Source: a virus. Taken from it: a stretch of DNA of 64,000 nucleotides. Shown here in pieces: positions 1 to 17,191 of the stretch. The position numbers and the translations under genes were made by a program. The notes beneath the pieces were generated by a model. The model made no database searches, was not told the DNA's origin, and worked only from the letters and a program-made list of their open reading frames with translations. Location of the stretch: the IMG/VR virus record IMGVR_UViG_3300024502_000013, positions 9,995-73,994 of that record; one strand, 5' to 3'. The first letter of the stretch is position 1, and each line of letters begins with the position of its first letter.

Positions 1-1079
1 AATATCCCACCAGGATCATGTCCACGTTGTTCGGTGATGAGTGTCAGATGGTTGATAAGGGTCAGGAAGATGTAATCCAAGAGATTAAATCTAATATTTG
101 GATGCCAAAAGAACCTGATGATTATGCAAATCTAAAACCAAAGATGGTTCTTTCGAATGGTCCTTTGGCGGATAAATGGAACACGTTGCGTACATTCTCA
201 TCCACAATGAAGAATAATTCCAACATTGGTCGCAATCTATTCTATACAGTTATTGATGAAGTTACCGAAAAGTTTCTCGGTGTTATCTGTATTTCATCCG
301 ACTTTTTGGACCTAACACCTCGTGACCAATTTATCGGCTGGCCTAAAGATATTAAGACAACCGGTAATATGATTAATCACACAGCAATCGGTTCAACAAT
401 TGTACCACTGCAACCTCTCGGATTTAATTATATGGGTGGCAAATTGTTGGCGTTGCTGTGTCTTTCTGACACCGTTCAATCTGATTGGAAAAGACAATAT
501 GATGATGTTCTTGTTGGCGTTACTACTACTAGCCTTTATGGTAATACAAAATCTAACGGTCTTTCACAGTACGATGGTCTGGAGCACTGGAGAAAGATGG
601 GTTTTAGTTCAGGCTCAGTTGCTTTTGATCCTAATAGAGATATTCTTAATCGCATTTATGATTGGGTAAAAGAGAATCACACTCGTCATTACTTTGAATG
701 GTGGGAAGCCAAGAAACCCAATGGACTGCCATACAAACGTGACCATAAAAACCGTACTCTACACTTTGCATATAGCAAATTGAAGATACCAAAAGAATTG
801 GTGAAGTGTGCTCACCAACGTGGCATTTATTTCTCGCCACTATATGACAACACACCCGAATTCCTCCGTAAAGAAATTACGGAAGATAAACTGGTAAAAT
901 CATTTGATACCAGTGAACAGGCCTTGACCGACATTTGGAAAACCAAATATGCCAAAGGCCGTATTTCCATGTTGAAGAAAAAAAATAATGTATCGTATGA
1001 ATCCCTATTCTATGATGACCTTATTTTTATGACATGGGAAGAAACCAAAGCGAAATATTTACCACAAGTTGGTCGGTAA
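1..1079 (+). CDS. DUF4338 / DruA-like protein, probably 5'-truncated by the window edge
   Basis: Motifs GRNL..FLGVICISS, VPLQPLGFNYMGGKLLALL, TTTSLYG..SQYDGL; the frame is open from position 3; paralog at 24785. Confidence 0.65.
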   Translation, partial: YPTRIMSTLFGDECQMVDKGQEDVIQEIKSNIWMPKEPDDYANLKPKMVLSNGPLADKWNTLRTFSSTMKNNSNIGRNLFYTVIDEVTEKFLGVICISSDFLDLTPRDQFIGWPKDIKTTGNMINHTAIGSTIVPLQPLGFNYMGGKLLALLCLSDTVQSDWKRQYDDVLVGVTTTSLYGNTKSNGLSQYDGLEHWRKMGFSSGSVAFDPNRDILNRIYDWVKENHTRHYFEWWEAKKPNGLPYKRDHKNRTLHFAYSKLKIPKELVKCAHQRGIYFSPLYDNTPEFLRKEITEDKLVKSFDTSEQALTDIWKTKYAKGRISMLKKKNNVSYESLFYDDLIFMTWEETKAKYLPQVGR

Positions 1080-4126: not shown

Positions 4127-5059
4127 ATGAGCGAACACATGTTGTGGGTGGAGAAGTATCGTCCCCAAACAATTGAAGAATGTATTCTGAATGACAACCT
4201 GAAAAAGACATTTCAGGAATTCGTCAACAAAAAAGAAATCCCTAACCTTTTACTTTGCGGTACCGCAGGTGTCGGTAAGACAACTGTGGCTCGTGCATTG
4301 TGTAATGAAATTGGTTGCGACTATATCATCATTAACGGTTCTGATGAGAACGGTGTCGATGCGGTTCGTAACAAGATTAAGAACTATGCGTCCTCCATGT
4401 CACTAACTGGTGGACGCAAGGTTATTATCCTTGATGAAGCAGACTATCTAACACCAAACGCACAAGCAATCCTACGTGCAGGTATTGAAGAATTCGCATC
4501 GAATTGTTCTTTCATCTTTACCTGTAACTTTAAGAATCGTATCATTGACCCACTACATTCTCGTTGTACGGTCATTGATTTCAAAGCCAACGGATCTAAA
4601 GCCAAGATGGCAACACAATTCTTTAAACGTGTTGAGAACATTCTAAAAGAAGAAGATATCAAATATGATAAAGAAGTTGTGGCTGCGGTCATCACCAAAC
4701 ACTTTCCAGATAATCGTCGTATTCTAAATGAACTACAACGATACAGTGCAAGTGGAGTCATCGACAAAGGCATTCTTGCTGCCGTTTCTGATGTACAACT
4801 TGGTGAACTAACCAAGGCATTGGCCAGTAAAGACTTTGCATCGGCTCGTAAATGGGTGACACAGAACCTAGATAACGACCCTGCAAGAATCTTCCGTAGT
4901 TTGTATGATACATTGTATGAACAACTAAAAGCTGGTTCTGTACCACAATTGGTTCTCATCCTTGCAAAGTATCAATATCAAGCCGCATTTGTTGCAGACC
5001 ATGAAATCAATCTCATGGCCTGTTTGACCGAGATTATGGTGGAGTGTGAATTCAAATGA
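4127..5059 (+). CDS. 44: clamp loader large subunit gp44
   Basis: WVEKYRP, GTAGVGKTT, LDEAD, SRC motifs. Confidence 0.97.
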   Translation: MSEHMLWVEKYRPQTIEECILNDNLKKTFQEFVNKKEIPNLLLCGTAGVGKTTVARALCNEIGCDYIIINGSDENGVDAVRNKIKNYASSMSLTGGRKVIILDEADYLTPNAQAILRAGIEEFASNCSFIFTCNFKNRIIDPLHSRCTVIDFKANGSKAKMATQFFKRVENILKEEDIKYDKEVVAAVITKHFPDNRRILNELQRYSASGVIDKGILAAVSDVQLGELTKALASKDFASARKWVTQNLDNDPARIFRSLYDTLYEQLKAGSVPQLVLILAKYQYQAAFVADHEINLMACLTEIMVECEFK

Positions 5060-9962: not shown

Positions 9963-10083
9963 TAGGATACTTACAGCAAAAAATATTTCGCCTTCTAAGC
10001 GAGAGGTTGTTGGTTCGAGTCCAACTTTTTCCACTAGGGAAAAATAGCGCAATTGGTAGCGCACTAAAAAGAGTATCCTGTTG
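9963..10083 (+). ncRNA. CAGCAA-scaffold RNA A carrying a circularly permuted tRNA-Arg(TCT)
   Basis: Stem AGGATACTT/GAGTATCCT, ACAGCAA; cargo order is anticodon arm, T arm, acceptor stem, D arm. Confidence 0.8.
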
Positions 10084-10688: not shown

Positions 10689-10779
10689 GCCTCTGTAGTT
10701 TAATGGTAAAACAGCGGATTTATACCCCGTAGCGCCAGATAAGCGGCTGATAGGAGTTCGATTCTCCTCAGAGGTACCA
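10689..10779 (+). tRNA. tRNA with TAT anticodon (Ile) and long variable arm
   Basis: Acceptor GCCTCTG/CAGAGGT, loop TTTATAC, extended variable region, CCA. Confidence 0.8.
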
Positions 10780-11256: not shown

Positions 11257-11345
11257 GGAGCTTGTTCCCTACGGCGGACTGTAAATCCGTTACCTGAATT
11301 GTAGGGTGGTCAAGGTTAGTGGTTCGATTCCATCAGGCTCCACCA
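11257..11345 (+). tRNA. atypical tRNA-Tyr(GTA) lacking a canonical D-arm
   Basis: Acceptor GGAGCTTG/CAGGCTCC, loop CTGTAAA, TTCGATT, CCA; no D hairpin. Confidence 0.75.
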
Positions 11346-13493: not shown

Positions 13494-13570
13494 GCCCCGG
13501 TGACGGAATTGGTATACGTGTTGGTCTTAGAAACCAAATTTTAGGAGTTCGACTCTCCTCTGGGGCACCA
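13494..13570 (+). tRNA. tRNA-Leu(TAG) with short variable region
   Basis: Loop CTTAGAA, Leu-type D arm, CCA. Confidence 0.9.
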
Positions 13571-14122: not shown

Positions 14123-14140
14123 ATTTTGAAAGGAAATGTT

Positions 14141-15568
14141 ATGAACACTTTTGTGAATGCCGTTATGAATCAAGAAGCTCGTACCACTAATGGTATGAAG
14201 GCTCGTAAGTCTACCGCCAGTGCGGTCGTGGACTTGTTCTATAACATTGGTGCAAGCCGTGGCAAGGACATTGTTCCTGCTTTTACCGCTGCATTGGTTG
14301 AGAACCGTGAGTTGGCACTCCGTGTAGCTGCATGGGCTCGTGATGCTCGTGGTGGTGCAGGTGAACGTGAATCGTTCCGTAACATCCTCCGTTATTTGGA
14401 AAAGACTGATGTTGAAGCCGCAAAGGCACTCTTGGCTAAAGTTCCTGAACTTGGTCGTTGGGATGACATTTTTGTTTTCCAAACCGATGTGATGAAGTCT
14501 ATGGCTTATACCATGTTGGGTGACGCTTTGCGTTCTCGTAATGGTTTGGCTGCAAAATGGACTCCACGCAAAGGACCTATTGCGGCAGAAATTCGTGCGT
14601 TCTACGGAATGTCACCAAAATTCTACCGTAAGTCCTTGGTTGAATTGACCAAGGTTGTTGAAACCCAAATGTGTTCTAAAGAATGGGATGCCATTAACTT
14701 TAGTCATGTTCCTTCCGTAGCAGCTGCTCGTTATAAGAAGGCCTTCAACCGTAATACTCCAAAGTATGCGGAATATGTTGCCGAACTTATGAAAGATCCT
14801 AAGGATCGTACCATGGAAGTGAAGGTCAATGCAGGTGCGGTTTATCCGTATGATGTATTGAAGGGTCGTATCAGCCACTACTTGCCTTTTGACAAGACCG
14901 AATTGGACTTGATTCAAAAGCAATGGGAAGCATTGCCAAACTATGTAGGTGACGCAAGTATACTACCTCTAGTTGACGTTTCTGGTTCTATGTCCTGCCA
15001 TGCAGGTACGAACACCAAATTGTCTTGTTTAGAAGTTGCAGTGTCTCTTGGCCTGTATCTTGCAGACAAGAACAAGGGTAAGTTTAAGGATACCTTCCTG
15101 ACTTTCTCTGGTAGTCCAGAACTGATGCACCTAAAAGGCAACATCAACCAAAAGATTGACCAAATGGTTAAATCTAATTGGGACATGAACACTAACCTGA
15201 ACAAGGCATTTGAAAAAATCCTTGACACTGCGGTGAAGGGTGGTGTTCCACAAGAAGAAATGCCAGCGATGGTGTTGATTCTGTCTGACATGCAGTTTGA
15301 CGGTTGCGTTGAACATGATGACAGTGCAATTGAAATGATTGCACGTAAGTACCAAGAAGCTGGATACGAACTTCCAAAGGTTGTATTCTGGAACTTGAAT
15401 GCTTCATATGGCAACAGCCCTGTGAAGTTTGACAAGTCTGGTACTGCTCTGGTATCTGGATTCTCACCAGCAATCGTGAAACCTTTGCTGAGTGGAGACC
15501 TAGATGGTTTCACACCAGAGTCCGTGATGCTTAAAACCATCATGGATGAACGTTACAAAGTAATTTGA
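14141..15568 (+). CDS. DUF2828-type TROVE/Ro60-like helical protein with C-terminal vWA (MIDAS) domain
   Basis: RDARGGAGER, GRWDD, AAKWTPR in the N-terminal region; VDVSGSM, NTNL, ILSDMQFD, VFWNL in the vWA region; AAAGGA RBS. Confidence 0.8.
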   Translation: MNTFVNAVMNQEARTTNGMKARKSTASAVVDLFYNIGASRGKDIVPAFTAALVENRELALRVAAWARDARGGAGERESFRNILRYLEKTDVEAAKALLAKVPELGRWDDIFVFQTDVMKSMAYTMLGDALRSRNGLAAKWTPRKGPIAAEIRAFYGMSPKFYRKSLVELTKVVETQMCSKEWDAINFSHVPSVAAARYKKAFNRNTPKYAEYVAELMKDPKDRTMEVKVNAGAVYPYDVLKGRISHYLPFDKTELDLIQKQWEALPNYVGDASILPLVDVSGSMSCHAGTNTKLSCLEVAVSLGLYLADKNKGKFKDTFLTFSGSPELMHLKGNINQKIDQMVKSNWDMNTNLNKAFEKILDTAVKGGVPQEEMPAMVLILSDMQFDGCVEHDDSAIEMIARKYQEAGYELPKVVFWNLNASYGNSPVKFDKSGTALVSGFSPAIVKPLLSGDLDGFTPESVMLKTIMDERYKVI

Positions 15569-16122: not shown

Positions 16123-16365
16123 ATGCAACCATTACATAATAAAGTGCTTGTTGAAAGAGTTCCTGGTGAAAGAACCACTTCATCTGGAATCGTATTAAGA
16201 ACCTCAGAAGAACCAGACCGTGCAAAGATTCTTGCGATTGGTCCTGATGTTAAAGAGGTATCTACTGGTGATGTTGTTCTATTAGATTGGAATGCAGCAA
16301 TCAAAACTGAAAATGAAAATTATGTTATACGGGAAGACCATATAGTTTTTGTTTACGGAGATTAA
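16123..16365 (+). CDS. groES: GroES-like co-chaperonin
   Basis: QPLHNKVLV..TSSGIVL..ILAIGP. Confidence 0.88.
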   Translation: MQPLHNKVLVERVPGERTTSSGIVLRTSEEPDRAKILAIGPDVKEVSTGDVVLLDWNAAIKTENENYVIREDHIVFVYGD

Positions 16366-16366
16366 T

Positions 16367-16567
16367 ATGTCAGATGGTGGTAAAGGTTCAAGTCCAAGAC
16401 CATTCAGCGTAGATAACAATACGTTCGCTGATAATTGGGAAAGAATTTTTGGTAAGAAAACACCAAAAGAAATTGACGATGCAATAGCTGAGGATGAGGC
16501 TTTTAAACAAGTCTTTGATAAGCAGGTTGTTATGAAACCTGAATATTACGATTTAGACCCTAAGTAA
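16367..16567 (+). CDS. conserved small phage protein
   Basis: MSDGGKGSSPRP..NWERIF; GGAG RBS. Confidence 0.65.
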   Translation: MSDGGKGSSPRPFSVDNNTFADNWERIFGKKTPKEIDDAIAEDEAFKQVFDKQVVMKPEYYDLDPK

Positions 16568-17191
16568 TTTTTCTAGTTCAGGTATTCTTGTTCTTGTGTT
16601 TTTACTACCAAGAACAATGACAACTTTATCATTTACCATTGCAACGATACATCCACCGGCTTTATTGATGAAGCCGGTTTTTGTTACTGTGTAATCGTAT
16701 TTACCCACTGTTGGGTTTGTGTTACGTTTCTTAATACTGCTAGCGTGTACAATTTCTGGATACTTACTGGATTCAATTACTATCTTCACTAATTCACCAG
16801 CAGTACTTACATTAAAGACAGACAGACCTGTTGGTTCTAAGAATTTGGTTTGTGTCAGGCCAAGTTCTCTGGCTTTTTGATTCATCATCCAGACACAATC
16901 ATAATAACCGCCAGGATAGATTTCACACAACTGTCTTGCAGCTTTGTTGTCTGAATAGACCAATGCACGTTCAACCAAATCCATTCTCTTTGGTAGATTT
17001 AATTCTCTTTGTGCATCTAGGTAGACCATGACTGTTACAAGTTTCGTAATGCTTGCAATTGGTCTTACCTCGTTTATGTTTTCACCATCAACTACACGGT
17101 TGTGGTCAACTACAATCCAACTTTTTGCTGTGACTTCAGCAAAAGAAGTTGAAGATACCAACATCAAAAACGAAAACAATAATTTAATCAT
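16553..17191 (-). CDS. peptidase S11 (PBP7/PbpG-like D-alanyl-D-alanine peptidase), secreted
   Basis: Signal peptide; SxxK (ASITK), SxN (SDN), KTG (TKTGF). Confidence 0.85.
   Translation of the reverse strand: MIKLLFSFLMLVSSTSFAEVTAKSWIVVDHNRVVDGENINEVRPIASITKLVTVMVYLDAQRELNLPKRMDLVERALVYSDNKAARQLCEIYPGGYYDCVWMMNQKARELGLTQTKFLEPTGLSVFNVSTAGELVKIVIESSKYPEIVHASSIKKRNTNPTVGKYDYTVTKTGFINKAGGCIVAMVNDKVVIVLGSKNTRTRIPELEKLLRV

Follow-up and report, generated by a model that had tools for sequence, protein, structure and literature searches.

The window, a 64,000-nucleotide stretch of viral DNA (IMGVR_UViG_3300024502_000013, positions 9,995 to 73,994), is taken from a 73,994-bp IMG/VR viral contig with a completeness estimate of 44%. 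The contig encodes T4-type replication genes, a clamp loader, and a family B polymerase; no tyrosyl-tRNA synthetase (TyrRS) gene was found on it. ARAGORN identifies 27 tRNAs in the window, which represent 19 amino acids and do not include tyrosine, and leaves empty a slot between tRNA-Lys (end 11248) and tRNA-Asp (start 11352). This gap is filled by an 89-base gene (11257-11345) that resembles a tyrosine tRNA with the anticodon GUA and lacks a D hairpin. With this gene, referred to here as the rewired gene, the array covers all 20 amino acids. A pattern consisting of the Tyr anticodon loop and the T loop has one match in the 74-kb contig, the rewired gene itself.

All parts of the gene lie on the + strand. 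The acceptor stem comprises eight base pairs, including one U.G, between an eight-nucleotide 5' strand (GGAGCUUG, 11257-11264) and a 3' strand at 11334-11341 (CAGGCUCC). The stretch that joins the acceptor stem to the anticodon arm is UUCCCUAC followed by a G; at nine nucleotides, this spacing is too short for any D hairpin, and the cloverleaf criterion of a D hairpin is not met. The stretch begins with the linker UU (11265-11266), which is two nucleotides long throughout the family (UU, AU, CU, or UC). Next is CCCUAC (11267-11272), strand a of a helix termed H2; this strand stands in for one strand of the D stem and leads on into the anticodon stem. The junction G (11273) is at the position of nucleotide 26; it faces U11300 in phage copies (as G.U) and an A in most bacterial copies, and by inference it is analogous to the 26-44 pair. 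The anticodon arm (11274-11290) has the stem GCGGA/UCCGU and the loop CUGUAAA, with the anticodon at 11281-11283. It retains U33, G34-U35-A36, and A37-A38, and it meets the tRNA criterion of a 5-bp stem and a 7-nt loop.

A single U separates the anticodon arm from a variable-arm stem of four base pairs, in which ACCU (11292-11295) is paired with AGGU (11313-11316). The loop of this stem contains an A/U-rich linker, GAAUU (11296-11300; A-rich and variable in length within the family), which is inferred to run along the H2 groove. It also contains H2 strand b, GUAGGG (11301-11306), the complement of 11267-11272, and the trinucleotide UGG (11307-11309), a proposed stand-in for G18-G19 of the D loop. 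Since H2 crosses the variable stem, the fold is a pseudoknot. The 4-bp stem is found at the class II variable-arm position and covaries; its loop is tied into the knot, and its orientation is undetermined. The T arm (11319-11333) has a 4-bp stem, GUGG/CCAU, and a canonical loop, UUCGAUU, that meets the criterion of a GUUCRA-type loop. The discriminator A73 (11342) is followed by an encoded CCA (11343-11345), and the window gene has the complete Tyr identity set of GUA, A73, and G1-C72. An earlier, sequence-only reading of this locus had noted the absent D hairpin, the short link, the CCCTAC/GTAGGG complement, the ACCT/AGGT stem, and the TGG; each is confirmed at the place it had given.

Standard tools do not recognize the gene, as that reading had considered possible for tRNA scanners. 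ARAGORN calls none of 156 rewired genes, and there is no Rfam match above threshold: the best is tRNA-Sec (RF01852), at 30.5 bits versus a gathering score of 47. No RF00005 match is listed for the rewired gene in the Rfam search; because the clan match kept is tRNA-Sec, any RF00005 match must have scored lower. No family for the rewired tRNA was found in Rfam 15. The minimum free energy (MFE) of the gene, -27.6 kcal/mol, is not significant (z = -1.3). The MFE fold pairs CCCUAC with GUAGGG atop the anticodon stem and omits the variable stem, and the folding tools used cannot represent pseudoknots. Given this ordinary fold energy, thermodynamic folding by itself is no proof of the structure.

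Homologs were collected from viral and prokaryotic sequences. A first viral scan required GUAGGGUGG and found 36 loci. A second viral scan, in which the anticodon arm and the T loop were the sole requirements, added rewired genes with the helices CUCUAC/GUAGAG, CCACAC/GUGUGG, CCCAAC/GUUGGG, CCCUGC/GCAGGG, CCUCUC/GAGAGG, CCUGAC/GUCAGG, and CCACCCA/UGGGUGG. UGG follows strand b in all of these additions, even though the pattern left it free. It is present in all 137 homologs of the final alignment, 18 distinct viral sequences fetched without requiring UGG among them. A scan of one genome per prokaryote species yielded 114 loci, 101 of which have the rewired gene (80 in Planctomycetota, 14 in Pseudomonadota, and a few in other groups). 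The sequence-only reading had spoken of phage homologs; phage copies do exist, but the gene is not restricted to phages, and its copies at the bacterial assembly loci are usually in tRNA arrays. After removal of duplicates, 137 distinct sequences from viral contigs and bacterial tRNA arrays were aligned with MAFFT, and pairs were counted on this alignment with the knot written in. The anticodon loop CUGUAAA was required by every search pattern, and GGUGG and GGUUCRAUUCC were each required by two of the three patterns, so the invariance of these motifs is partly by design. In the bacterial set, the forced motifs extend to the final two pairs of H2; the searches placed no constraint on the other four pairs of this helix, on the discriminator, or on the acceptor and variable stems.

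Covariation is seen in all five helices across the 137 homologs. Two-sided changes are found in 8/8 pairs of the acceptor helix and 5/5 pairs of the anticodon stem (99.3% of cells paired in each), in 5/6 pairs of H2 and 3/4 pairs of the variable stem (97.8% in each), and in 2/4 pairs of the T stem (92.2%). Overall, 97.7% of cells are paired, versus 78% in shuffled alignments, none of which reaches the observed value (0/500); sliding the partners by one to three columns reduces pairing to 42-60%. When the tree is inferred (FastTree) with the H2 columns left out, at least 22, 13, and 24 Watson-Crick switches are needed at the three middle pairs of H2; the short alignment makes this tree rough, and the counts may be inflated. 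The eighth acceptor pair occurs as GC (115), UG (12), UA (4), AU (3), and CG (1), and the middle pair of the variable stem as UA (65), CG (60), GC (8), and AU (4). In the T stem the two inner pairs are invariant G-C, in part through search design, and the two outer pairs vary. Three proposals made from the single sequence are thus upheld in the family: the pairing of CCCUAC with GUAGGG, the 8/4 arrangement of acceptor and T stems (a covarying eighth acceptor pair with a T stem of four pairs), and the TGG behind the pairing strand.

A lone 6-bp complement could be due to chance; conservation and compensatory change in 137 distinct homologs place this one beyond it. The gene might instead be a decayed tRNA-Tyr pseudogene, with or without a fortuitous complementarity, and both its rejection by tRNA finders and its unremarkable fold energy would suit such an origin. 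That explanation is already contradicted by the covariation, since every helix is kept by compensatory change in the distinct copies, and also by the presence of the gene in many phage lineages and bacterial arrays; it can be virtually dismissed. Another possibility is a working tRNA without a knot in its mature form, in which the crossing helices exclude each other and the molecule has either the variable hairpin or the long nested helix seen in the MFE fold. The MFE fold does consist of H2 without the variable stem, and it was obtained with tools unable to fold pseudoknots. Yet H2 and the variable stem each covary and are almost always paired in the same sequences, and exclusive use of one helix is quite improbable. 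As far as comparison of sequences can demonstrate it, both helices are under selection, and because they cross, the selected structure is a pseudoknot. The structural interpretation offered by the sequence-only reading is to this extent supported.

The discriminator, which was absent from every search pattern, is an A in 137/137 GUA copies; G1-C72 is found in 134/137 homologs, and the phage copies encode the CCA end. The knotted 8/4 scaffold is also found with the anticodon GCA, and every such copy has a U as discriminator. The GCA copies form five distinct sequence groups (L138 and its relatives, L282, L287, L290/L293, and L292), exemplified by genes at L138:1057-1142 (-), L282:12267-12354 (-), L287:267-354 (+), L290:387-473 (+), and L292:2227-2309 (-). 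Further GCA/U73 relatives are found at L151, L174, L207, L265, L266, L273, L274, and L293, and most GCA copies have a rewired tRNA-Tyr as a neighbor within their array. Covariation of H2 extends to these copies (CCUCCC/GGGAGG, CCUGGU/ACCGGG, CCUAGU/ACUAGG, and CCCCAU/GUGGGG). GCA together with U73 is the identity set of CysRS (PMC5389517). Judged by these identity elements, the GCA/U73 copies are tRNA-Cys on the rewired scaffold. The coupling of anticodon and discriminator (GUA with A73, GCA with U73) is what charging by synthetases predicts. This identity switch is the strongest new argument for a working tRNA, and its support for charging is indirect only. No anticodons other than GUA and GCA were found in the scaffold in a descriptor scan of the 2.0 Mb of fetched loci, and viral scans for G-V-A and H-U-A anticodons (including amber and ochre suppressors) returned nine loci, none with the scaffold.

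In five large viral records, the rewired gene is the only match to the pattern of Tyr anticodon loop and T loop. One of them is a 343,632-bp record rated 99% complete, in which the ARAGORN tRNAs cover the other 19 amino acids and the rewired gene is the only one for tyrosine; tRNA-Asp and tRNA-Asn follow directly downstream of it, the same arrangement as in the window. The suggestion that this is the sole Tyr tRNA of a full set thus holds both for the contig and for a nearly complete relative.

In bacteria the setting of the gene is different in that a normal class II tRNA-Tyr is encoded elsewhere in the genome in 5/5 Planctomycetota carriers checked, so the rewired gene is dispensable there. 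A median of 12 tRNA genes is found within 2.5 kb of rewired genes, and Planctomycetota arrays can be dense (e.g., 39 tRNAs in 8 kb in Schlesneria and 27 in Lacipirellula). The Planctomycetota rewired gene fits a gap of its exact size between Leu(CAA) and Glu(CUC). With model R1, the gene was detected in 8/151 sampled Planctomycetota genomes, which is a lower bound, as the first-look filter scored few candidates; at this frequency, the idea of a core tRNA of the clade was rejected. From its location in arrays, the normal tRNA-Tyr of the carriers, and this sparse distribution, the rewired gene is an accessory gene of tRNA arrays common to phages and bacteria. BLAST comparison of three representatives with 50,697 phage records, and of one representative with 72,556 plasmids, gave only anticodon-arm matches and thus no cultured phage or plasmid carrier. 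A match in Aeromonas phage 25 (NC_008208) was rejected as a carrier, because its Tyr gene belongs to the normal class II type and has a D hairpin. This tRNA-Tyr(GUA), at about 1473-1557 of locus L244 between tRNA-Asn and tRNA-Gly, has an encoded CCA, is not annotated as a tRNA, and is overlain by an opposite-strand CDS for a “hypothetical protein.”

The retention of a normal tRNA-Tyr in all five bacterial carriers would also be compatible with a tRNA-like decoy or regulatory RNA, which would soak up a tRNA-Tyr-directed nuclease or bind TyrRS without decoding. Arrays of tRNA genes have been discussed as anti-defense elements (PMC12803027), and some irregular 8/4 tRNAs are charged yet unused in translation (PMC5389517). 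A decoy role is at odds, however, with phage sets that are otherwise complete and have the rewired gene as their only Tyr gene. A decoy for one nuclease would have no need of a joint switch from GUA/A73 to GCA/U73, nor does such a role account for the retained anticodon loop, T loop, and 12-bp arm used by EF-Tu. On balance, a decoy is unlikely.

The array is present in eight river metatranscriptome runs. Contigs from two of the three RNA runs compared span the rewired Tyr gene with zero differences. Depth over the region ranges from about 5 to 650 in the RNA libraries, whereas in a DNA run it is mostly 7-12, with a few peaks to about 85; RNA-library depth is strongly uneven and that of the DNA run far more even, a contrast that suggests that the libraries reflect RNA. 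The metatranscriptome contigs are consistent with transcription and contain no information on mature ends, processing, strand, or level. Processing of the transcript into a normal cloverleaf was rejected, as the segments do not follow a circularly permuted order and the RNA-library contigs have neither a joint nor an edit in the gene.

The gene probably encodes an elongator tRNA-Tyr(GUA) that is functional and departs from the cloverleaf in the threading of its core; its charging, decoding, and three-dimensional fold are inferred. That the molecule is charged and decodes is very likely, though unproven. The 8-bp acceptor stem and 4-bp T stem add up to the usual 12-bp arm, the arm used by EF-Tu, and the anticodon arm and T loop are canonical. 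A canonical tRNA core contains the U8-A14-A21 triple, the 26-44 pair, the 45-[10-25] triple, and the G18-Psi55 and G19-C56 pairs. The three-dimensional argument is reasoning from this core, without a model. H2 is inferred to stack on the anticodon stem in the fashion of a D stem, with its strands swapped relative to the cloverleaf: the 5' strand would occupy the place of D-stem residues 22-25 and continue into the anticodon stem, and the variable-loop strand would occupy the place of residues 10-13, rise toward the elbow, and lead into UGG. UGG would act as G18-G19, docking on the unchanged T loop and closing the L shape. The six pairs of H2 may replace a D stem of 3-4 bp together with the 8-14 and 15-48 layers, as in tRNA-Sec, which fits the weak tRNA-Sec match. 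Displacement of the junction by one pair (8/4) plausibly lets the two-base linker reach the elbow end of H2. The host TyrRS is presumed to charge the molecule through A73, G1-C72, the GUA anticodon, and the retained base of the variable arm. The rewired gene would thus be the Tyr member of tRNA arrays in large phages and in bacterial chromosomes, mostly those of Planctomycetota.

Several known RNAs share parts of this architecture. Canonical class II tRNA-Tyr(GUA) (RF00005; e.g., the normal Tyr genes of the same Planctomycetota genomes and that of Aeromonas phage 25) has the same CUGUAAA loop, A73, G1-C72, canonical T loop, UUCC after the acceptor stem, and stem at the base of the long variable arm. 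The rewired form differs in that it has no D hairpin, is 8/4 instead of 7/5, is pseudoknotted, and places the second D-type strand and the GG after the anticodon arm, inside the variable loop. The (8/4) allo-tRNAs, which are tRNA-Ser and tRNA-His of bacteria and alphaproteobacterial phage clusters, share the 8/4 12-bp arm and the long variable arm; like the rewired gene, they occur in phage tRNA clusters and are missed or mis-called by finders (PMC5389517). They are, however, cloverleaves with a D hairpin like that of tRNA-Sec (a long stem and a tetraloop), which the rewired tRNA lacks, and the main text of that study (Mukai et al. 2017) describes 8/4 Ser and His forms, no Tyr member, and no knot (PMC5389517). 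tRNA-Sec (RF01852) has a long acceptor stem, a long variable arm, and a 6-bp D-type helix that dispenses with the 8-14 and 15-48 tertiary pairs. The rewired tRNA scores below the threshold for that family, has GUA rather than UCA, and builds its D helix by pairing in trans with the variable loop instead of folding a hairpin.

Two further comparisons concern RNAs without a D hairpin or with a knot. D-armless mitochondrial tRNAs (e.g., mammalian mt-tRNA-Ser(AGY)) also have no D hairpin, and their linker contacts the variable and T regions; they are shrunken, have no replacement helix, and need adapted partner proteins (PMC7609411). In contrast, the rewired tRNA is full-sized, has a rebuilt 6-bp helix, and occurs in bacteria and phages. 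The tRNA-like structures of plant RNA viruses (TLS-Val and TLS-His) are L-shaped mimics built with a pseudoknot, some of which are aminoacylated (PMC7749636, PMC8127992). There the knot builds the acceptor arm at the 3' end of a non-decoding RNA genome, whereas the rewired knot builds the D helix of a free-standing array gene. No published description of a pseudoknotted tRNA-Tyr was found in a full-text literature search; one seeming match turned out to concern an integrase. A 2020 review of non-canonical tRNAs includes no such case (PMC7609411), the tRNAscan-SE 2.0 paper makes no mention of a knotted tRNA-Tyr, and a 2024 paper states that all known bacterial tRNAs are cloverleaves (PMC11551756), a generalization that would fail if the rewired tRNA is charged and decodes. 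What is new here is a tRNA variant with a knotted fold for which no published description was found.

The Septu and Retron-Eco7 PtuAB nucleases cleave tRNA-Tyr within its variable arm, and phages offset the attack by encoding a tRNA-Tyr themselves; the tRNA-Tyr of T5 is reported to resist cleavage through its distinctive variable loop (PMC13096335, PMC11555353). Because these systems cut the variable arm of tRNA-Tyr, evasion of defense is plausible: a rewired tRNA-Tyr with its variable loop locked in a knot could be an escape form from nucleases of the variable or D arm, an untested guess. The fuller scenario, in which a natural, decoding, non-cloverleaf scaffold with a strand-swapped, knotted D helix exists for Tyr and Cys in mobile arrays and is kept through escape of the Septu/Retron-Eco7 PtuAB type, is tentative and rather doubtful as a whole. 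If the rewired tRNA is charged and decodes, the L shape is attainable by another threading of the chain, and TyrRS, CysRS, EF-Tu, RNase P, and the ribosome all tolerate that altered threading. In that case, many large phages and bacterial arrays would have one of their twenty tRNA types missed by standard annotation. Genetic-code engineering would also gain a natural scaffold that may be nuclease-resistant and may be orthogonal, and the arms race between phages and Septu or retrons over tRNA-Tyr would gain a concrete test case.

The arrays include other genes of unusual form. Bacterial tRNA-Leu normally has a long variable arm. The window encodes a tRNA-Leu(UAG) (13494-13570) with a variable loop of only 5 nt, and tRNA-Leu genes of class I length (73-77 nt) are also found at 4135-4210, 4661-4735, 4830-4905, and 4918-4990 of locus L164; unorthodox tRNAs of more than one type may be present in the arrays. 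At 10689-10779 of the window, and at 11095-11185 of L295, a locus of the nearly complete 344-kb viral record (G156), lies a 91-nt tRNA with a 7/5 fold; its anticodon is UAU, its variable region is long, and its CCA end is encoded. It recalls the UAU-anticodon allo-tRNAs of Mukai et al., and its amino-acid identity cannot be assigned. L295 also has a tRNA with the anticodon CUA, of amber suppressor type, at 1960-2034 (“Pyl” according to ARAGORN) and, in the same tRNA region, a tmRNA gene at 16304-16717 with the tag ANDEVYALAA.

Protein-coding genes are also present in and near the array of the window. A 480-aa ORF inside the array (14126-15568, +) matches Pfam DUF7788 and DUF2828 and phrog_850, annotated as “RNA-binding protein,” and has no solved relative; its depth is about 100-650 in three metatranscriptome runs versus about 10 in the DNA run. 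phrog_850 was rejected as a protein partner of the rewired tRNA, since it is beside rewired Tyr genes in 3/54 cases versus 14/68 for normal Tyr genes. An RNase H-like ORF and a phosphoesterase ORF were likewise rejected as partners, as they merely mark related phages. At 18-1079 (+) of the window, a phage ORF matches Pfam DruA, the Druantia defense protein, with E = 1.4e-20.
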